Origin: an uncultured Acidobacteriota bacterium
GTDB taxonomy: Bacteria > Acidobacteriota > Terriglobia > UBA7540
Assembly: GCA_963804995.1 (NCBI GenBank)
Contig: CAWDSK010000002.1
Coordinates: forward strand, 256,001-320,000
Reading direction: 5' to 3'
Length of the DNA stretch: 64,000 bases
In this document: positions 4,691 to 50,513 of the stretch, piece after piece
Numbering within the stretch: the stretch's first letter is position 1
Layout of the letters: every line of letters starts with the position of its first letter
Position numbers and translations under genes: made by a program
Notes under the pieces: model-generated
Told to the model about the DNA's origin: nothing
Database searches by the model: none
What the model saw: the letters and a program-made list of their open reading frames with translations, nothing else

Positions 4691-6718
4691 ATGACGCAAA
4701 TCAGATCAGGGGGCCCGTGGGCATTTCCGGGCACTTTCCGCTTCAATCCGCGGTGGCTGCTCGAAGCGGGACTGCTGAGCCTGATTTTGGCAGTAGGGGC
4801 GGGCTTAGGCAGGGCGCAAGTCTCCGCGCCCCGGTTTGAGGTCACCAACTACCTCATCAACGCGGAGTTGTATCCCTCCACGCACGTCCTGAGTGCGAAG
4901 GTACGTGTAGATCTTCTGCCCAGGACTGACCTTACTACCTTGTCGTTCGAACTCCACAGCAACCTCCGAGTTGAGAAAGTCCTGGATACCAAGGGTCAAG
5001 AGGTGTCTTTCAAGCAAGAAGGCCAGGCTCTGACCCTGTCACTCTTGAACCCCTTACCCGCGGGCAAGCCGGCTTCGATCATGCTGAGTTACGGTGGAAC
5101 ACTCAATACCGCCGATGGCAGCCCGGTGGAAGGACTGAAGCTGGCGTATGTGGGCACCGAGGGCTCTTACCTTCTCTACCCGGGCCGGTGGTTCCCTGTT
5201 AGCGGCTATGGGGTCAATCGTTTCACTGCCACCATGAAGATCACCGTCCCCTCAGAAGAGACCGTGATTGCTTCCGGGAAATCCGGGGGCCTGGAACGCG
5301 AGGCGGGAAAAGTAACTTACACTTATGAGTTCGGCAAGGCCTCGTTCCCGGGAACCGTCATCACGGGCCGCTATGTGGTACAGCCGGCCACCGCCGTCGG
5401 CGCGGATATCGCTCTCTACCTCAAACCCGGCCATGAGAATCTTGCCGCGAGCTATGGTGATACGGCGGCGAAGATCCTGGCCTTTTACAGCGATGAGTTC
5501 GGCCCGTTGCCGAGCGCCCACCTGGCGATCGTTGAAATCGAAGACGGCACGGTGGGCGGTTACACGTCACCCGGCGTGGTAGCCCTGGCCTCACGTGCGT
5601 TCACGACCACGGTCAATTACCGGCTGCTGGCGCACGAGATTTCCCACTTGTGGTGGCGGTGCCTGGTCAATCCCGCGACTCCTAATGATGCCGTTCTCAA
5701 CGAAGGCCTGGCCTCTTACTCAGCCGCCATGTATGTGCAGCAGTTTGCAGGGGACGCAGCCTTTGAAGATCTGATGCGTGAGACGGAGGTGGGCGCGCTG
5801 ACCCATGAGGAGGTGGCGCCCATTGCGCAGGCCGGGCAATTGCATGAGTTCACCCCTGAGTACGACTCGATCGTTTTCAAGAAGGGGTCCATGGTGTTCC
5901 ACATGCTCCGCTGGGTGGTGGGGGACGAAGCGTTTCGTAAGACGCTGCGGACCATGGGGCAGGAGTACGCCTGGAAATCCATCTCCACGGATCAATTCCA
6001 GCGCCTGGTGGAAAAAATTTCCAAACAGCAGTTGACCTATTTCTTTGCGCAGTGGGTCAGCTCCACCGGTGTGCCGCAATTTAAGCGGAGCTGGGCCGTT
6101 TATCGGCTGCAAAAGGGCTACCAGGTGATTGGCAAGGTTCAACAAGACCTGGATATCTTCCGCATGCCGGTGGAGGTTCGGGTCATCTGCCAGGGTTCCA
6201 AACCCGTTAACCAGCGCATAGAAATGGTGGGCACGACGGCGGACTTCACCATCGATACTCGCACCAAGCCCCTGCGCGTCCTGGTCGACCCGGCCAGCCG
6301 CATCCTCAAATTCGACGATAAAACCAAGTATCAAGTTGAGCTGGCCCGCGCCGATCAGCTTGTCCAGCAAGAGGCGTATCTGGAAGCCATCAAGCAGTAT
6401 CAGGATGTCCTGGAGCTCAATAAGAACAGCTCGCTGGCCCACTACCGGCTGGGTGAATTACATCTCAAATTGCGCAATTACAACGCCTCGATGGAGGAAT
6501 TCCGGCGCGCCCTGGATGGCGATTTGGATCCCAAGTGGGTGGAAGTCTGGGCGCACCTGCAACTGGGGAAAATTTTCGACGTGACCGGCCAGCGCGACCG
6601 CGCCCTTAACGAATATCAACGCGCCCTGCAGACCAATGACAATACCCAGGGAGCGCTGGACGAAGCCAATCGGTATATCCAAAAACCCTACACAGCCCCG
6701 CAGACCGCGACAAGCTGA
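4691..6718 (+). CDS. Secreted M1-family (gluzincin) aminopeptidase-like protein with C-terminal TPRs
   Basis: Signal-like N-terminus, HEISH...NEGLASY zinc motif, C-terminal TPR helices. ATG 4691 preferred over the ORF-caller start at 4427, which runs through a REP. Confidence 0.85.
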   Translation: MTQIRSGGPWAFPGTFRFNPRWLLEAGLLSLILAVGAGLGRAQVSAPRFEVTNYLINAELYPSTHVLSAKVRVDLLPRTDLTTLSFELHSNLRVEKVLDTKGQEVSFKQEGQALTLSLLNPLPAGKPASIMLSYGGTLNTADGSPVEGLKLAYVGTEGSYLLYPGRWFPVSGYGVNRFTATMKITVPSEETVIASGKSGGLEREAGKVTYTYEFGKASFPGTVITGRYVVQPATAVGADIALYLKPGHENLAASYGDTAAKILAFYSDEFGPLPSAHLAIVEIEDGTVGGYTSPGVVALASRAFTTTVNYRLLAHEISHLWWRCLVNPATPNDAVLNEGLASYSAAMYVQQFAGDAAFEDLMRETEVGALTHEEVAPIAQAGQLHEFTPEYDSIVFKKGSMVFHMLRWVVGDEAFRKTLRTMGQEYAWKSISTDQFQRLVEKISKQQLTYFFAQWVSSTGVPQFKRSWAVYRLQKGYQVIGKVQQDLDIFRMPVEVRVICQGSKPVNQRIEMVGTTADFTIDTRTKPLRVLVDPASRILKFDDKTKYQVELARADQLVQQEAYLEAIKQYQDVLELNKNSSLAHYRLGELHLKLRNYNASMEEFRRALDGDLDPKWVEVWAHLQLGKIFDVTGQRDRALNEYQRALQTNDNTQGALDEANRYIQKPYTAPQTATS

Positions 6719-6765
6719 GGCGCTGGCGGCTTCAGCCCCTAAGCGCTAACTTAAGTCACCATGGT

Positions 6766-6840
6766 CGTAGCGGCGGGTTTACCCCGCCATTTTCGCGGCG
6801 GCGTCACGCCGCCACATGGCGAGGTAAACTCGCCGCTACG
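6766..6840. repeat. Inverted pair of GTAG REPs (REPIN-like, family 2)
   Basis: GTAGCGGCGGGTTTACCCCGCCAT...GGCGGCGTCACGCCGCC...ATGGCGAGGTAAACTCGCCGCTAC. Confidence 0.85.
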
Positions 6841-6848
6841 TACCGACA

Positions 6849-6915
6849 GGCTGGCGCAGCTCTGCCACTCATCCGTTTCGCTTACCATATCGCAGAGTTT
6901 TACTCTGCGCCGGCC
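6849..6915 (+). repeat. ~75-bp double-hairpin repeat, copy A (GGCTGGCGCAG family)
   Basis: GGCTGGCGCAGCTCTGCCACTCATCCGTTTCGCTTACCATATCGCAGAGTTTTACTCTGCGCCGGCC; homologous to 8483-8560 and 11615-11692. Confidence 0.9.
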
Positions 6916-6995
6916 TATGACGGTTCCTTATTGGCAATCTTTGCTAATTCTGCCACAATCTCCTTGAGAATCGATACCCCGATAAGGAACGACCC

Positions 6996-7238
6996 ATGCC
7001 CACGCGCAATGTGAATCTGACTGACGAGCTTGATCGTTTCGTGCTGAAGAAAGTCGAAAGTGGCCGTTACGAAAACGCCAGTGAGGTTGTCCGTGCCGCC
7101 TTGCGCACCTTGGAGCGCGAAGAGCAGCAATACGAGGCGAAGCTTGCCGCGCTGAGGATGGCGATTGATGAAGGTGACGCGAGTGGCGTTGCCGACGGGA
7201 ATTCCTTTGCGCGCGTCCGGCGGGCTGGCGCAGGGTGA
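6996..7238 (+). CDS. parD: ParD-family (CC2985-like, ribbon-helix-helix) antitoxin, orphan
   Basis: MPTRNVNLT...VESGRYENASEVVRAALR...LAALRMAIDEGDASG; RBS AAGGA. No ParE-like ORF follows. Confidence 0.85.
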   Translation: MPTRNVNLTDELDRFVLKKVESGRYENASEVVRAALRTLEREEQQYEAKLAALRMAIDEGDASGVADGNSFARVRRAGAG

Positions 7239-7248
7239 AACCCTGCGA
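7223..7248 (+). repeat. Half copy of GGCTGGCGCAG repeat overlapping the parD 3' end
   Basis: GGCTGGCGCAGGG-TGAAA-CCCTGCGA, with a compensatory stem change relative to CGCAGAG/CTCTGCG. Confidence 0.75.
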
Positions 7249-7519
7249 CTTTGGGATCGACCCGCATCGAACCAACGAGTCTTAGAGCGTTGCGTTACCC
7301 TGCTGCTCCCCATGTGACCATAATCAGTCAACAGCAGGTTTTGTGGTCTCAGAATTTGAGGCATGATGACAGCCTGCGCGGATGCGGCTGGGGTTATACT
7401 GGAGGCAGCAGCGGGAAGGCAGTATGAACACTCTGCCCTATGAACTCCGCTCCCGCAGGCAGTGGCGGGTTTTCGTCTCTTGCCCTCGGTTGCTCCCCCT
7501 GCCGGCTCGGGGAAGGGTG

Positions 7520-8449
7520 ATGTCGTCGCTGAAGCATTTTGCCGCGGTTCTGATTCTGTGTGGCCGGCTTGCCGTGCCCCACTCCGCTGCCGCCATGCCA
7601 TCCCAGCTTCTGCCACCAGACGAATTAAGGTACTACGATCGAGCCAGGTCCGTTGTGGACCTGACCCCGGCCGAACTGCGGAAAGCATACCCCGAACTCT
7701 ATGATCTGGATCCCGTGCGTAGCCAGAACGACCTCGGCCGCATCCTGCAAAAGGTAGGCGAAGGGGTTGAGGCGTTCATCCGTGACTTCCCCAACACAGC
7801 GTCGCTCGAAAGTGTGCGGCGGGAAAGGCTCGACCGGAAAGGGATTGTCCTGGAAAGCGATACGCAGACTTTCAACTATCTGGCGTTGGGTCGCAGCGAG
7901 GGAAGCAAAGGGGGCCTGAGTGAGATCCGTACGGACAACATGGGCAGGCCCCTCGAACCCCATGCCATGAACGGGCCCTCCATACTCACCATTGGGTTTG
8001 TGTCCATGGTGATGTACTTCCACCCCAAACTCCAGCCCGACTCCACCTTTCGTTACCTCGGGCATCTGACGGTCGATGGTCGTGACGCCTATGTGGTGGC
8101 CTTCGCGCAGCGGCCGGAGGCAGCGCAAGTGGGCACCTGGCTCGAATTTGGAAGCCAGTCCAGCAGGATCCTCGTGCAGGGGATTGCCCAGATTGACGCC
8201 GATTCCTCCCAGATTCTTCAGATGCGTGTGGACCTGCTCGCACCACGGCCCGACCTGGGAGTGAACAAGTATTCCACGGAACTCCATTTTGGCAAAGCTC
8301 GGTTCAGACAAATCTCCAAGACGTTGTGGACCCCCCATAAGGTGGTTGTGACCTTGGATCTGGGCGGCCAATTATTTCGGAATTACCACCACTACTCCCA
8401 CTTCAATTTGTTCAACGTGGAAGCGAAGATAAAGGAGGACGCCCCCTAG
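7520..8449 (+). CDS. Putative secreted hypothetical protein
   Basis: Long ORF with signal-peptide-like N-terminus (MSSLKHFAAVLILCGRLAVPHSAAA) and beta-rich C-terminus. Start uncertain. Confidence 0.7.
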   Translation: MSSLKHFAAVLILCGRLAVPHSAAAMPSQLLPPDELRYYDRARSVVDLTPAELRKAYPELYDLDPVRSQNDLGRILQKVGEGVEAFIRDFPNTASLESVRRERLDRKGIVLESDTQTFNYLALGRSEGSKGGLSEIRTDNMGRPLEPHAMNGPSILTIGFVSMVMYFHPKLQPDSTFRYLGHLTVDGRDAYVVAFAQRPEAAQVGTWLEFGSQSSRILVQGIAQIDADSSQILQMRVDLLAPRPDLGVNKYSTELHFGKARFRQISKTLWTPHKVVVTLDLGGQLFRNYHHYSHFNLFNVEAKIKEDAP

Positions 8450-8482
8450 CCGCCCCCCGCCGACCTCCCCAAGCCCAGAAGC

Positions 8483-8560
8483 GGCCGGCTGGCATAGAGC
8501 GCAGCTCTGCGACTCATCCGCATCGCTCACCATATCGCAGAGTCTTACTCTGCGCCCACC
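8483..8560 (+). repeat. ~75-bp double-hairpin repeat, copy B
   Basis: GGCCGGCTGGCATAGAGCGCAGCTCTGCGACTCATCCGCATCGCTCACCATATCGCAGAGTCTTACTCTGCGCC. Confidence 0.9.
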
Positions 8561-8651
8561 CGCCGACGGCACATTCTGTAAGACTGCGCGGGCACGGGGT
8601 ATTTCTGCGGGTAGGCCGTATTACGACCGAGTGAGTCTTCTCGCCTGTTGA

Positions 8652-8687
8652 TTTTGCAAGAAAAAAGTGTTATTTTTTCTTGCAAAA
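8652..8687. promoter_or_regulatory. Perfect 15-bp inverted repeat, probable AbiEi autorepression operator
   Basis: TTTTGCAAGAAAAAA-GTGTTA-TTTTTTCTTGCAAAA ending 14 nt upstream of the antitoxin ATG. Confidence 0.7.
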
Positions 8688-8701
8688 CGAATGGATAAAG
8701 T

Positions 8702-9319
8702 ATGGCGCAAACAATTGAAAATAAGGTCGTAAGCCGCATTCGAGGAACCGCTAGAGGGTGGGCATTCTCGCCACGTGATTTTCTGGACCTTGGCGAGCGG
8801 CCAACCATCGATTCTGCCCTGCATCGCCTTGCCCAACAAGGACAGGTTCGGCGCATCATCCGCGGTATCTACGACTGCCCGCGCTCCAGTAACCTTCTAA
8901 AACAACCCTTGAGTCCGGACATTGACCAGGTTGCCCGCGCCTTGGCGCGCAAATTTCGGTGGCGGATTCAACCCAGCGGGGCAACCGCTCTGAATATCTT
9001 GGGCTTATCAGCTCAAGTTCCAGCGCGCGTTGTCTATCGGTCCGACGGCCCGGACCGTAACTACAGGGTTGGCAATACGAACTTGGTTTTCGAACATACT
9101 GCGCTCAAAGAGGCGGGTTTCAAACTGCGGGAGAGCGGCTTAATCGTTCAAGCCATCCGCTCTCTCGGGCAGGAACACGTGACGCCGGATGTCGTTACCA
9201 AAATCCGATCATGGTTGCCGCCTTCTCTGCGCTCCAAAGTCCTGGCGGATACCAAGACCGCTACCGGATGGGTGTACGCCACGATACAGCGCATTACCGA
9301 GGGGGAGCAACGTGGATAA
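8702..9319 (+). CDS. abiEi: Type IV toxin-antitoxin antitoxin, AbiEi-like (DUF6088-type)
   Basis: N-terminal wHTH (FSPRDFLDLG...IDSALHRLAQQGQVRRIIRGIY), SGATALNILGLSAQVP; overlaps the downstream nucleotidyltransferase gene. Confidence 0.82.
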   Translation: MAQTIENKVVSRIRGTARGWAFSPRDFLDLGERPTIDSALHRLAQQGQVRRIIRGIYDCPRSSNLLKQPLSPDIDQVARALARKFRWRIQPSGATALNILGLSAQVPARVVYRSDGPDRNYRVGNTNLVFEHTALKEAGFKLRESGLIVQAIRSLGQEHVTPDVVTKIRSWLPPSLRSKVLADTKTATGWVYATIQRITEGEQRG

Positions 9320-10322
9320 GATCGCGATGCGGCCAGCCTCCGACCGGCGAGACCTATTTAGTGAATCAGCGAGCCAACTCGGGATGAATCCGGTCATCAT
9401 CGAGAAGGATTTCTGGGTGTGCTGGATTCTGAAGAGGCTATTCGCCGACCCTCGCCTGAAAGATCAAATCATCTTCAAGGGTGGAACTACCCTTTCCAAA
9501 GTCTACAGGCTCATCGACCGGTTCTCTGAAGATGTCGATCTGATTCTAGACTGGCGTCTGCTTGGCTATGGTCCACCGCAGGGGGACGATCCCTGCCGGG
9601 ATCTTCCCTCTAAGACACAGCGGAGTCGTTACAACCAGGAGATCAACGCACGGGCTGCCGGGTACATTCGCGATACACTTCTCCCACAACTGAGTTTACT
9701 TCTTGGCACAGTGCCGGAAATCGCCATCTCCATCGATGCAACTGATTCCCACACCGTGAATGTAAGTTATCCAGCCAGCTTTGCTGCTTCCTACATCCGT
9801 CCAGAGGTCCGGCTCGAAATAGGTCCATTAGCCTCCTGGCTTCCCTCAGGCGAACACGCTATTCGACCCTACGCCGCTGAAGTGTTTCCAGACGTATTTG
9901 AGGACGCAAGCTGCCCAGTGGTCGCAATCCACGCAGAGAGGACGTTTTGGGAGAAAGCTACGATTCTCCACCAGGAGGCACATCGCTTGGGGACCATGCC
10001 GGCGCGCCACTCGCGTCACTATTATGACGTTTACAAAATGGCGGGCAGCAAGATAAAGGATGCGGCGTTTTCCGATCTTGCACTACTCCTTGACGTGGTC
10101 GCCTTCAAAGAACTCTTCTACTACTCCTCTTGGGCGCGCTTTGACTTGGCAAAGCCCGGATCCTTCCGGCTGAGCCCCCCGCCCCGCCAGATCACAGCAC
10201 TCCTGCGCGATTACAAAGAAATGCGCGACATGTTTTATCGAGAACCGCCGGAATTCGCAACGATTCTGGCGGTCCTACCGCTCCTTGAAGAAGAAATCAA
10301 CAATCTTGGCAGGCAGCGCTGA
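9312..10322 (+). CDS. abiEii: AbiEii/AbiGii-family nucleotidyltransferase toxin
   Basis: IEKDFWV, FKGGTTLSKVY, RFSEDVDL, ERTFWEK, SRHYYD motifs; GTG start at 9312 with GGAG RBS. Confidence 0.9.
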   Translation: MDKIAMRPASDRRDLFSESASQLGMNPVIIEKDFWVCWILKRLFADPRLKDQIIFKGGTTLSKVYRLIDRFSEDVDLILDWRLLGYGPPQGDDPCRDLPSKTQRSRYNQEINARAAGYIRDTLLPQLSLLLGTVPEIAISIDATDSHTVNVSYPASFAASYIRPEVRLEIGPLASWLPSGEHAIRPYAAEVFPDVFEDASCPVVAIHAERTFWEKATILHQEAHRLGTMPARHSRHYYDVYKMAGSKIKDAAFSDLALLLDVVAFKELFYYSSWARFDLAKPGSFRLSPPPRQITALLRDYKEMRDMFYREPPEFATILAVLPLLEEEINNLGRQR

Positions 10323-10328
10323 GCGGCA

Positions 10329-10369
10329 CGTAACGCGCGGGTCGGACCCAATTCGAGGTCCGCGCTACG
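10329..10369 (-). repeat. GTAG-type REP-like hairpin
   Basis: Minus strand reads GTAGCGCGGACCTCGAATTGGGTCCG; lies just after the abiEii stop. Confidence 0.55.
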
Positions 10370-10549
10370 CTTGCTCCAACGACCGAGATGCGCCAGCCTG
10401 CCCAGTTGACGCAAAGACAACTAATCCGGCAGTGGAAATGCGGTCGCGCGATGGAGGTTCAAACTTTTCCTTCTTTGTGATATATGGATGCAGTCTGGTT
10501 CGACCCATACTGGTCTATCGGTGACCGTTTGATCAGGCAACTCGAATCG

Positions 10550-11602
10550 ATGAAGCTCCTTCGCAAACACGCTTGCTTGATGACGGTGCTCATTTTGGCC
10601 AGCGGCAACTTCACGCTTGTTCTCGGTAATGACAGCGCCGCGTCGACCGCAATCGGTGGAATTCAGTTGCGCCGGGAGGCGAATATCTCCATGGAAAAGG
10701 AGCGCCTAACGATCAGTGAGGCCAAAGTTACAGTTGAGTATGAATTCCTAAACCAGACGGATAAGAACATCACGACCGAAGTCGCCTTTCCAATTCCGCC
10801 TTATGATGTTGCATTCATGGATGCCGGCGGCGTAAGAGATTTCGACAACTTTCGTTTGTGGGTCGAAGGTAAGGAATTGAAGTACAACATTGAAGTCCGA
10901 GCGAAACTACGCGGCAAGAATTACACTGATTTGCTCAAGAGTCTGGGGATTGACATCGCATCATTCGGTCATTTCGATGTAGACCGGGAGGGAGAACCGA
11001 CAGGTCAAATCACCAAGCTTTCCAAGGGACAACGAGATCAGCTATTTCGGTTGGGACTGATCTCTGGACCTGATGCTTCTCCACCGGGAATGCCGGCGTG
11101 GGATGCCGTGAAGACATATTATTGGATGCAGACCTTTCCAGCTCACAAAGTACTGCGTGTTCGTCATGAATACACGCCGAGCTTTGGCTTCAAGGATATG
11201 TCCGCACGCGACCTAGACCCCAAGACGCCGCACCCCAGTGATATCCGCGGTCAAATTGAGAATGCGTGCGTCGATCCATCCTTGCGGAAGGGACTGACGG
11301 ACCAAGCGATTAAGAATTACAAAGCCCCTGAAGAAACGCTAATGGGCATGGTTTGGGTAGACTATATTTTGACGACAGCCAATTCTTGGAAAACTCCAAT
11401 CAAAGACTTCACCTTGGTCATCGACAGGCGAAGAGATTCGAAGCATATTGCTGGAGTGGGGATGGAATACGTTAGCTTGTGTTGGGACGGACCGATCAAA
11501 AAGCTGGATGCCGATCACTTCCTGGTGCACGAAACGAATTTTGTTCCCAAGAAGGAACTCCACGTTGCCTTCTTTTCCTTCCTTGTGCCGCCAGACAAGT
11601 AG
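10550..11602 (+). CDS. Secreted DUF4424-like protein
   Basis: Signal peptide, then NDSAASTAIGGI...ISMEKERLTIS...VEYEFLN...VAFP, YYWMQTFP, YILTTANSW..PIKDFTL, VSLCW. Confidence 0.75.
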   Translation: MKLLRKHACLMTVLILASGNFTLVLGNDSAASTAIGGIQLRREANISMEKERLTISEAKVTVEYEFLNQTDKNITTEVAFPIPPYDVAFMDAGGVRDFDNFRLWVEGKELKYNIEVRAKLRGKNYTDLLKSLGIDIASFGHFDVDREGEPTGQITKLSKGQRDQLFRLGLISGPDASPPGMPAWDAVKTYYWMQTFPAHKVLRVRHEYTPSFGFKDMSARDLDPKTPHPSDIRGQIENACVDPSLRKGLTDQAIKNYKAPEETLMGMVWVDYILTTANSWKTPIKDFTLVIDRRRDSKHIAGVGMEYVSLCWDGPIKKLDADHFLVHETNFVPKKELHVAFFSFLVPPDK

Positions 11603-11614
11603 CCACCCTCCGAC

Positions 11615-11692
11615 GGCCGGCTGGCGCAGAGCGCTCCTCTGCGACTCATCCGCTTCGCTCACTATATCGCAGAGTTTTACTCCGCGCCAGCC
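11615..11692 (+). repeat. ~75-bp double-hairpin repeat, copy C
   Basis: GGCCGGCTGGCGCAGAGCGCTCCTCTGCGACTCATCCGCTTCGCTCACTATATCGCAGAGTTTTACTCCGCGCCAGCC. Confidence 0.9.
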
Positions 11693-11738
11693 AGCCCCTT
11701 TATCCCTTGCTCAGCACTATCCCTTTTAGCTTGTCAGC

Positions 11739-11861
11739 ACCACCCCGGAGTCAGCACCTCCCCGTCGCTCAGCGCGCCACCCCTCCTCATCTGAGGAGGG
11801 GAGTTCTTGAAAAACTCCCCTCCTGATTCAGGAGGGGTGGCGCGCCGAGTGCCGGGGTGGT
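11739..11861. repeat. Long nested palindrome (CCCCTCCT...AGGAGGGG twice) between convergent genes
   Basis: ACCACCCCGG...GCGCGCCACCCCTCCTCATCTGAGGAGGGGAGTT-CTTGAAA-AACTCCCCTCCTGATTCAGGAGGGGTGGCGCGC...CCGGGGTGGT. Confidence 0.85.
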
Positions 11862-11901
11862 TACGATAGAGCGGTTTGCGCCGGGGTGTTCTTCCACCTT
11901 T

Positions 11902-13047
11902 TCACCCCGCTTCGGCGCGGGCGTACTTCAATCCCGCGAGTTCCGGCCGAGAAACCCCGCGGTGCTGAACGAGCACTTTGAAGACTTCGCCCATCCCGAC
12001 CGGAGAGATCAAGCGTTTCAGTTTGAGCCGGGCATCGAGCCTCTCAACTTCACTTTGACCTGCGTCGTAGGCGTCCGCGAACTCGTTAGCCTCGCCCAGG
12101 CCCAGCAGGAATCTCTCCTGCGTGGTGAATCCTGCCAGCTCCAGCCCCGCCGCCTTCCCCGCATCGATCAGGGCGCTGAAGTTCACGTGCGCGGTCAAAT
12201 CGCATTCACCCGGTGTAGAGAAAAACTCCTCTGAGACGGTGTGGACGCGGTACGCCAGCAACGTCCCGCGCGGGCGGTCCGGCGTGTAGAGCCGCTTCGC
12301 GGTGTCCCCGTAATCGACCGTGATCACAAAACCGCGTGCCAGTTTGGCGGCGACGGCGCGCATCCACTCCTGCGCCTGCCGGTTCACCTCCACGCGATGA
12401 CCTTCCTCAAGCTGGTTCGCGTACCGCGCGACGTAGGCCGCGATGGCGGGATCGCTGATGGGGCCAAGCTTCTCGCCCAGGTTGTCGCCTTCAGCGGTTA
12501 CATAGACTTCCTTGAGATGTCCACCCGCGCGCGTGATCACGCTGACCGGAAAGGCGTCCACAAGTTCGTTCGAAAAGAAGCAGCCGGTGGTGGCCTCAAC
12601 TTCTGCAACATTTGCGAGGAGGCGGACCCGCCGCTCCAGGCCCGCGCTGGCCAATCGGGTCGCGATAAGCTGGCGCTGTGGCCGCCCGGGCTCGATGGCG
12701 ACATAGTCGAGCGCCACGGCAAATTCCGGCAGCGCGCGGGTTGTCCAAGTCAGGAAGTCGGTGGCAAAAAGCCCCCGCCCCGTGCCCATTTCGACCCAGG
12801 TGAAGCGCTCGGGCCTTCCCAATGCTTGCCACATCTCCGCCGCCTGCCGCGCCAGGAGTCGCGCAAATATCGGGTGCAGGTCGGAACTGGTGAAGTAATC
12901 GCCGTCCTTCCCGGTGCGCTCCCGCCCCTGGGTGTAGTAACCGAAATCCGGATGATAGAGACACAGCGCCATGTAACGCTCAAAGGTGATGGCGCCCTCG
13001 CGGCGGATAGAGTCGAGAAGCAGTTGTTCGAGAGGTGTTTGGCTCAA
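11902..13047 (-). CDS. SAM-dependent methyltransferase, MidA/NDUFAF7 family
   Basis: ITFERYMALCLYHPDFGYY, GDYFTS, EMGTGRG, SNELVDAFPV, VDYG, DLTAHVNF, MGEVFKVL. Confidence 0.92.
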   Translation of the reverse strand: MSQTPLEQLLLDSIRREGAITFERYMALCLYHPDFGYYTQGRERTGKDGDYFTSSDLHPIFARLLARQAAEMWQALGRPERFTWVEMGTGRGLFATDFLTWTTRALPEFAVALDYVAIEPGRPQRQLIATRLASAGLERRVRLLANVAEVEATTGCFFSNELVDAFPVSVITRAGGHLKEVYVTAEGDNLGEKLGPISDPAIAAYVARYANQLEEGHRVEVNRQAQEWMRAVAAKLARGFVITVDYGDTAKRLYTPDRPRGTLLAYRVHTVSEEFFSTPGECDLTAHVNFSALIDAGKAAGLELAGFTTQERFLLGLGEANEFADAYDAGQSEVERLDARLKLKRLISPVGMGEVFKVLVQHRGVSRPELAGLKYARAEAG

Positions 13048-48787: not shown

Positions 48788-49309
48788 ATGTCGCGTCTCC
48801 GCCGCCTCGTGTTGTCCGACCGGTATTTCTTTATCACCTGCCGCGTCCTGCCGCACCGGAAGGCGCTGGAGGAATCCGAGTTTGAGTGCTTGGCCAAGGT
48901 GGTGGCCGAGCGACGGGAGAAGCACGGGTTTCTGCTGACGGCCTGGGTTCTGCTTCCGGACCATTGGCATGCCATCTTCTATCCGCGCTCTCCACTCACC
49001 ATCTCGCGGGTTATGGAGTCCATCAAGGTGGGCGCCACCTCGAAAATCAACAGCGCCCGAAGGGAAAGGGGCCTCCTGTGGCAGCCGCGTTTCTTCGACC
49101 GCGCCATCCGTACCGTGAAGGAATATTACGAGAAAGTGGAGTACATTCACCAGAACCCGGTGAAGTCGGGCTTGGTGAGCCGGGCGGAGGACTGGGCGTG
49201 GTCAAGCGTGCGCGAATACTCGGGGACGGTCCATGCGCCCCTGAGCCCGCACCCTATTCTGACGATCAACCGCGTCACGCTACCGGCGGAGCTGCGAACC
49301 CGGATTTGA
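48788..49309 (+). CDS. rayT: REP-associated tyrosine transposase (RAYT/TnpAREP, Y1 HUH)
   Basis: YFFIT, WVLLPDHWH (HUH), LWQPRFFDRAIR, YIHQNPVKSGLV, DWAWSS; flanked by REPs. Confidence 0.93.
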   Translation: MSRLRRLVLSDRYFFITCRVLPHRKALEESEFECLAKVVAERREKHGFLLTAWVLLPDHWHAIFYPRSPLTISRVMESIKVGATSKINSARRERGLLWQPRFFDRAIRTVKEYYEKVEYIHQNPVKSGLVSRAEDWAWSSVREYSGTVHAPLSPHPILTINRVTLPAELRTRI

Positions 49310-50437: not shown

Positions 50438-50470
50438 GCAGGCTGGCGCAGAACGAGCACAGTTCTGCGA
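50437..50470 (+). repeat. Half copy of GGCTGGCGCAG repeat
   Basis: GGCAGGCTGGCGCAGAAC-GAGCACA-GTTCTGCGA immediately after the TPR stop. Confidence 0.75.
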
Positions 50471-50513
50471 TTCAGTGCAAATCAAGTCAGTCGGTCCGGG
50501 GAGGGCAACAACC

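Follow-up and report, generated by a model that had tools for sequence, protein, structure and literature searches.

A 64,000-nucleotide stretch of the genome of an uncultured Acidobacteriota bacterium (Terriglobia; UBA7540; assembly GCA_963804995.1, contig CAWDSK010000002.1, positions 256,001 to 320,000), here called the window, carries an island of accessory genes between a peptidase gene and a MidA-like methyltransferase gene. A 78-bp double-hairpin repeat, or a remnant of it, lies at all five cargo joints of this island, both outer boundaries included. Two copies of a RAYT-type transposase gene are bracketed by the same ends, orthologs of that gene are found with such ends at further loci, and 78-bp copies are widely dispersed; the repeat therefore derives, in miniature and non-coding form, from a mobile HUH (Y1) transposon of Terriglobia that resembles a TIRtron. 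That the ends themselves made the joints, by cut-and-join through their own RAYT-type transposase, is a reading of the sequence to which we give about an even chance.

Layout of the island

The preliminary description of the window had pictured a cassette-like array delimited by hairpins. Its three co-oriented double-hairpin copies (A, B and C) are borne out, B and C starting 35 and 14 nt past stop codons as it had remarked, and its cargo labels (parD, secreted protein, abiEi-abiEii, DUF4424) hold in Pfam, TIGR02606 and PADLOC. What it took at 7223 for half a copy is full-length, though decayed, and runs in the opposite orientation (D), and it overlooked a fifth remnant, E, a bare foot on the minus strand. 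The GTAG-type repetitive extragenic palindromes (REPs) that it placed at 6766 and 10329 are present, but belong to other large families. The order from the peptidase to the MidA-like gene is as follows (C6 and the like denote contigs of this genome, G000):

4691..6718, plus strand: M1 peptidase-TPR gene, conserved left anchor (Pfam; present in 27/27 relatives searched)
6766..6840, no strand: GTAG REP doublet of another RAYT family; the motif also flanks the RAYT at C6:1198811; 216 motif copies; z -8.3
6847..6913, plus strand: element A, decayed doublet, left arm short of 8 nt; junctions GA (left) and GG (right)
6996..7238, plus strand: parD antitoxin open reading frame, cut at codon 75; parD DNA stops at 7220 and the final 5 codons are element D
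7221..7289, minus strand: element D, decayed full-length doublet, reversed; foot joined at GG within parD
7520..8449, plus strand: predicted secreted protein of an unnamed Acidobacteriota family; candidate starts 7382, 7520 and 7655
8485..8562, plus strand: element B, 78-bp doublet; both junctions GG
8702..9319, plus strand: abiEi antitoxin (PADLOC)
9315..10322, plus strand: abiEii nucleotidyltransferase toxin, bacterial type IV toxin-antitoxin (TA) or abortive infection system (Pfam, PADLOC)
10329..10369, minus strand: single GTAG REP of a third family; 202 motif copies
about 10384..10400, minus strand: remnant E, bare element foot upstream of DUF4424, joined at GG; too short for left or right typing
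10550..11602, plus strand: DUF4424 gene, 50% GC (Pfam)
11617..11694, plus strand: element C, 78-bp doublet; both junctions GG
11756..11861, no strand: inverted repeat of a further unrelated family; 165 motif copies
11902..13047, minus strand: MidA-like SAM methyltransferase gene, conserved right anchor (domain match)

GG is read at seven of the eight recognisable feet within the island. Copies B and C are 87% alike, and A resembles them at 82-91% over the aligned part; the folds of A and C beat 200/200 shuffles (z -3.9), and that of B is weak (z -2.1, 8 of 200 in the shuffle test). Among the cargo, ParD matches PF03693 and TIGR02606, AbiEi and AbiEii match in PADLOC at 5e-64 and 5e-100, the DUF4424 domain is recognised, and the secreted protein has a paralog (36%) in the C-terminal part of a 694-aa protein encoded on C7. 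The proposal that the island is specific to a lineage, that each of its joints carries a repeat and that breakpoints fall at the repeat feet is supported.

Some smaller likenesses were seen along the island. Positions 8553-8566, the right foot of B with the next bases, agree at 13/14 with positions 11603-11616, the 14 bases left of C, possibly as the trace of an earlier junction or by chance. The REP at 10329 is of a type resembling the flanks of a RAYT at C5:58461, and sequence similar to the repeat at 11756-11861 lies upstream of a RAYT homolog at C6:722282-722827.

The repeat family and its junction rule

Mapped across the genome, the element proves to be a dispersed family: a strict pattern finds 85 hairpins with a GYTGG foot, beside 81 GTAG-foot hairpins that share the stem, and a profile search finds 135 ends in 78 clusters, as singles, dimers and larger clusters. 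The covariation of the stems, first remarked on in the local copies, holds across the genome. The 78-bp doublet consists of two transposon ends back to back, each with the structure G(G)|CN-GGCTGG-hairpin; the feet are CTGG, TTGG or GTGG in place of GTAG, and the ends are without the GGGGWSAS motif. One of 110 ends falls inside a called gene, the calls being those of a home-made caller by which some genes, abiEi for example, were overlooked.

Starting four bases outside GGCTGG, the letters G, G and C are found in 85, 92 and 88 of 110 ends, and the sequence is random beyond. The outer flank of 25 ends is matched by a homolog at another place in the genome. GG is read at 19 of these ends; in 11 of the 19 the homolog, too, has GG (three of these cases being tandem ends or a local duplication), in 16 its first position is G, and it then diverges, and the C after GG is common to end and homolog in only 6/25. 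Since the flank homologs share G(G) and rarely the following C, the G(G) is likely target and CN-GGCTGG likely element.

The end pattern is found in 76 of the 133 genomes of the family, with 3 matches in a reversed control, and near-perfect 78-bp doublets stand at many different sites in 22 genome or metagenome loci, several of them redundant. Viral contigs gave 43 pattern matches, none with a hairpin. The right hairpin of the family has itself received insertions: a DDE_5 (PF13546) insertion sequence (IS) with CTGGAGTTT ends sits inside it, as does a 175-bp miniature of that IS, with the 19-bp hairpin duplicated (G000:C1:533404-535233; C6:1005717-1007547; C6:1258122-1258296).

The transposase paired with the ends

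There are 14 Y1_Tnp matches in the genome, two of which, at C2:467478-468029 and C3:777557-778108, are bracketed by these ends in inverted orientation. The two genes share 96% protein identity and 93.7% DNA identity over exactly 667 bp, from foot to foot, and sit in unrelated flanks; this end-RAYT-end unit is the autonomous form of the element. At 30 ortholog loci, which include one of this genome and range from 59 to 100% identity, both ends are present in 22 cases, one end in seven and none in one, and the flanks differ at every locus. Present twice in this genome, and in other surroundings wherever an ortholog occurs, the RAYT appears to be mobile in its own right. In 76/133 genomes of the family the protein has a match, and its nearest named homologs are in Terriglobia.

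The transposase has 183 aa, Y1_Tnp as its only annotated domain and no C-terminal helix-turn-helix (HTH); it passes the NCBIfam RAYT model NF047646 (110 bits, cut-off 80), and H60-x-H62 (the HUH motif) and Y144 in Y-x-x-x-NP are invariant in the family. Residues E100, H101 and R104 of TnpA-Ec are tied to GTAG recognition in PMC6006769; the corresponding positions are replaced in 9/9 aligned family members. We regard the 183-aa RAYT as the likely enzyme for the ends, a pairing that rests on the flanking. The RAYT/HUH origin suggested for the repeats in the preliminary description is supported. That description had tied them to the RAYT at 48.8 kb of the window, and here a different enzyme is the one bracketed by the ends. 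Two further features belong to this part of the window:

48788..49309, plus strand: GTAG-type RAYT with GTAG feet on its flanks; 29% identity to the end-bracketed RAYT; keeps the recognition residues in type (D-R-x-x-R)
50439..50474, plus strand: lone right-type end, joined at GG overlapping the stop codon of the TPR gene

The first was rejected as the enzyme on account of its GTAG flanks and its low identity; the second is the end already remarked on after the TPR gene beside that RAYT.

The site and its cargo in relatives and metagenomes

The two anchors are adjacent in 21 of the 27 genomes that have both, 20 by coordinates (gaps of 24-190 bp between matches) and one by sequence (L064), and the 4.8 kb of cargo is absent there. 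In three relatives the anchors lie on different contigs, and in three others unrelated inserts of 0.85, 5.4 and ~19 kb stand between peptidase and MidA (L045 in G004, L046 in G005, L047 in G017). None of the fetched relative stretches of the site holds an end, the best match reaching 8 bits against 16-27 for most ends of the window. Since three relatives have inserts without ends, the peptidase-MidA site is an insertion hotspot with or without the element. The G017 insert starts with the GTAG REP family of window position 6766; it also holds several transposases, along with what appear to be TA or defence genes.

At the parD junction the gene is cut exactly at the foot of D. All nine homolog loci (9/9) have an 85-aa ParD and a downstream partner gene, which we take to be parE, and no end; at the window's junction parE is, on this comparison, lost. 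Microhomology may have contributed, because the parD homologs read GG-CAGGC or similar at this point, close to the foot. Two pairs of near-identical metagenome loci show other changes at the element: L083 and L085 are set apart by a deletion of 35 bp that stops at a foot, and L068 and L084 share one junction and not the other.

Sediment metagenome contigs of ~93-98% identity cover all cargo genes; none spans the island, and none bridges the repeat between abiEii and DUF4424. In X1 and X5, from one study, a left end of the same subfamily lies 4 nt past the abiEii stop, where the window has a GTAG REP. X1 also has a C-like copy ~68 nt further upstream of DUF4424 than remnant E of the window, and its homology to the window begins at 10400, the junction of E. 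This is most simply read as a fifth full copy carried by the X1-type population, with a later re-joining in the lineage of the window.

These contigs bear on the possibility that element and neighbouring gene are excised as a circle, which integrates conservatively at a sibling element in the manner of IS26 translocatable units. The X1 joints 10321->8480 and 11696->10400 formally match circle products, the arrays show direct repeats of the same subfamily, and L068/L084 is a flank exchange at an element. The X1 joints are ambiguous, however: a linear fifth copy accounts for both, and the contig has ~68 nt between element and 10400 that are not in the window. Copy D is reversed, copies within an array are hardly more alike than copies between arrays (0.845/0.80, 0.92/0.91 and 0.856/0.857 in three comparisons), and no cargo was found on the same element junction at a second locus. 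We consider such circles improbable. A single contig of run X3, at depth 3.7, has the foot of C (window 11692) linked to a sequence like the peptidase 3' end (6681); a circle, a duplication of the gene end or DNA of another organism could lie behind it.

Among the 132 other genomes of the family, abiE DNA has one match (70%), the secreted gene none and DUF4424 none. The element loci of G007 and G015 have no common flanks.

Arrays elsewhere in the genome and family

Arrays were counted from 39 compact doublets, complete doublets only, with neighbours less than 6 kb apart. All 11 neighbouring pairs are co-oriented (11/11, one pair being a segmental duplication), and nine of the 11 are of the same subfamily (7/9 with the window left out; shuffle p 0.002); at 6-200 kb orientation is random, with 18/39 co-oriented. 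No replication-strand bias was seen behind the co-orientation, 37/68 agreeing with a GC skew that is weak in this genome. In other genomes, direct sibling pairs are present in 7/10 loci, which were chosen by closeness of hits and not by orientation. Segments between elements belong to the lowest GC decile in 8/15 cases (6/11 outside the window).

In two other arrays, the intergenic homology of the cargo to element-free loci (G017, G043) ends at a foot. Element 2 of the C3:774k array joins pieces that are found on different contigs in G017 and G005. The other arrays (G000:C6:1887945-1890607; C3:774532-778153; C9:253100-255990) contain low-GC genes and a TIR-domain gene and adjoin an Eco29kI-type nuclease, and one holds an intact RAYT copy. 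Outside them, two species carry an HTH antitoxin gene, 96% identical between them, at the inner side of a lone right end (L133:2729-3139; G000:C6:521407-521758), and the G000 copy has its 3' end deleted up to the hairpin; antitoxin and end together are possibly a passenger-carrying form.

How the joints may have been made

In the cut-and-join reading, the RAYT-type transposase would join ends singly to G or GG sites in single-stranded DNA: cleavage would leave the 5' foot of the element bound to the catalytic tyrosine, and the foot would then be joined to a target strand that had been cut after G(G), for which the left end of IS608 offers an analogy. The two ends would act semi-independently, so that neighbours are trimmed and unrelated DNA is linked, and with repeated local action co-oriented copies would come to stand wherever unrelated stretches of DNA had been newly joined. 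Single-end joining of this kind would explain the junction rule, the adjacent deletions, the new joints and the co-oriented siblings together. Gene boundaries would play no part in the process: selection would preserve useful genes that came through whole (abiE, DUF4424), and broken ones (parD) would decay. The process would resemble IS26-type array building or one-ended transposition and not an integron. HUH enzymes are described as leaving a 5'-phosphotyrosine and a 3'-OH and as joining suitably ended strands to a cut REP substrate (PMC8266576).

Several observations weigh against this reading. The junction data fit a cut after the first G as well as one after the second, and a clean empty site was found for none of 57 paired elements, and for 46 of these at least one side has no homolog. 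Genes lying outside the ends are not more atypical or small than those at random intergenic points (p 0.67 and 0.39), truncation of genes at the feet is not enriched (3/110 vs 55/1000), and no outer flank is common to two ends among 110; co-transfer of neighbours is therefore not seen among these ends. When lone and decayed ends are added, co-orientation below 6 kb drops to 7/11. The GTAG sister family clusters too (11/51 vs 2.3), and 3/7 of its between-element segments are low in GC. Most other cargo edges end 15-70 nt before a foot, the island of the C6:1.888 Mb array reaches past its leftmost element, and at the peptidase-MidA gap G004, G005 and G017 have inserts without the element.

In a rival account, the cargo would have come by other means to a tolerant intergenic hotspot, and the element would then have hopped locally on the same single strand into gaps separating the accessory genes, producing co-oriented siblings and occasional adjacent deletions, so that it marks the island and imported nothing. 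The element-free inserts in three relatives, the absence of a genome-wide bias towards atypical genes and the outer flanks that are never shared all favour this account, as do the three other repeat families that crowd the same island and the donor loci of the cargo, which are without ends. It sits less easily with a copy or remnant at five of five joints, outer cargo boundaries included, with element 2 of the C3:774k array, which links pieces from different contigs, and with the failure to find a contiguous empty site. We hold such colonisation and trimming to be a real possibility, somewhat short of an even chance. Cross-species "modules" beside ends were considered as cases of co-transfer; most stopped at gene borders, and they were not counted.

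A wider form of the cut-and-join reading would see here a Terriglobia-wide collector independent of any integrase, composed of a mobile RAYT, a CTGG guide and doublets joined to incoming single-stranded DNA, which would stack defence, TA and secreted-protein genes in co-oriented arrays. We put this forward tentatively and think it rather unlikely. If true, integrons and IS26 arrays would have a counterpart of HUH type, and the maintenance of RAYTs would bring the host a concrete benefit. How RAYT repeats spread, and what the host gains, is presented as a long-standing question in PMC8266576 and 10.1101/2021.07.10.451892.

Comparison with known systems

The arrangement resembles an integron, or a cluster of attC sites lacking an integrase (CALIN), in having accessory TA, defence and secreted-protein genes between hairpin repeats; it differs in that the cargo keeps its own promoters, junctions fall inside genes and one repeat is reversed. 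Integron-like gene capture had been put forward as a possibility in the preliminary description, and the kind of cargo and the position of B and C near stop codons speak for it. The cut of parD at codon 75, which destroys parDE at that junction, and the reversal of D led us to reject whole-gene co-oriented cassettes with one repeat each. IntI is absent by TIGR02249 (best match 77.9 bits, cut-off 265; genome 92% complete). The core pair of attC sites is RYYYAAC...GTTRRRY, and none is present in 6701-11900 on either strand, nor in any copy of the element. The ends, too, bracket another RAYT than the one at 48.8 kb. An integron remnant, or cassettes handled by that GTAG RAYT, is on these grounds extremely improbable. 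Gene 3' ends do not set this family apart either: 18/109 ends lie within 60 nt of a gene 3' end, which is above random (5-8%) and no more than in four GTAG REP families (12-22%).

The nearest described system is the TIRtron with its TIRYT transposases (Di Nocera et al. 2013, PMC3733652), in which a RAYT-like gene likewise lies between terminal inverted repeats without GTAG, and the repeats are also found alone, as dimers and in clusters; that account, whose passages on these elements contain neither a junction rule nor cargo arrays, names self-complementary terminal inverted repeats and a TIRYT group of Acidobacteria. The enzyme, of 183 aa and without a C-terminal HTH, and the ends, without GGGGWSAS, differ from subclass 2.1 as characterised in PMC6006769, and are therefore not typical of it. 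With REPIN-RAYT systems (10.1101/2021.07.10.451892, PMC8266576) there is agreement in the two inverted hairpins with a spacer, ~80-100 bp in all and extragenic, in the RAYT gene flanked by the repeat and in the match of the enzyme to NF047646. Those systems, as outlined there, have a GTAG foot, a C|T cut site and single-copy domesticated RAYTs, whereas here the foot is CTGG, the junction G(G)|C and the RAYT present in two copies with unrelated flanks.

IS26 arrays (PMC4196232), as portrayed in that report, similarly hold unique accessory segments between directly oriented copies of one element, but the copies are identical and are full DDE insertion sequences, in contrast to the decayed 78-bp HUH doublets of the window. 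A RAYT-family enzyme, TnpA-REP, has been proposed to diversify neighbouring accessory genes, the prochlorosin genes (10.1101/2020.03.09.984088); in the portion of that work drawn on here the enzymes are of subclass 2.1 and one gene family is concerned, and an added note by its authors says that strong evidence for causation was not found. Our literature search, with most subscription journals outside its coverage, returned nothing on this end type or on cargo arrays built by RAYTs. As characterised here, the family is TIRtron/REPIN-like, its foot is CTGG, its RAYT is short and apparently mobile, and its copies form co-oriented arrays.

The system offers a compact test case: a 183-aa enzyme, a 78-bp substrate, a predicted G(G)|C junction and a non-GTAG foot, with natural rearrangements ending at that predicted junction. 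Should the ends import DNA, gene arrays would have a third way of arising, next to integrons and IS26; should they do no more than colonise and trim, what remains is a mobile RAYT clade, so far undescribed, that occurs in over half of the 133 family genomes searched. The genome of the window (G000) is unusually rich in repeats and TA genes: PIN domains are matched 59 times, and RAYT-like genes with different repeat families number at least eight.

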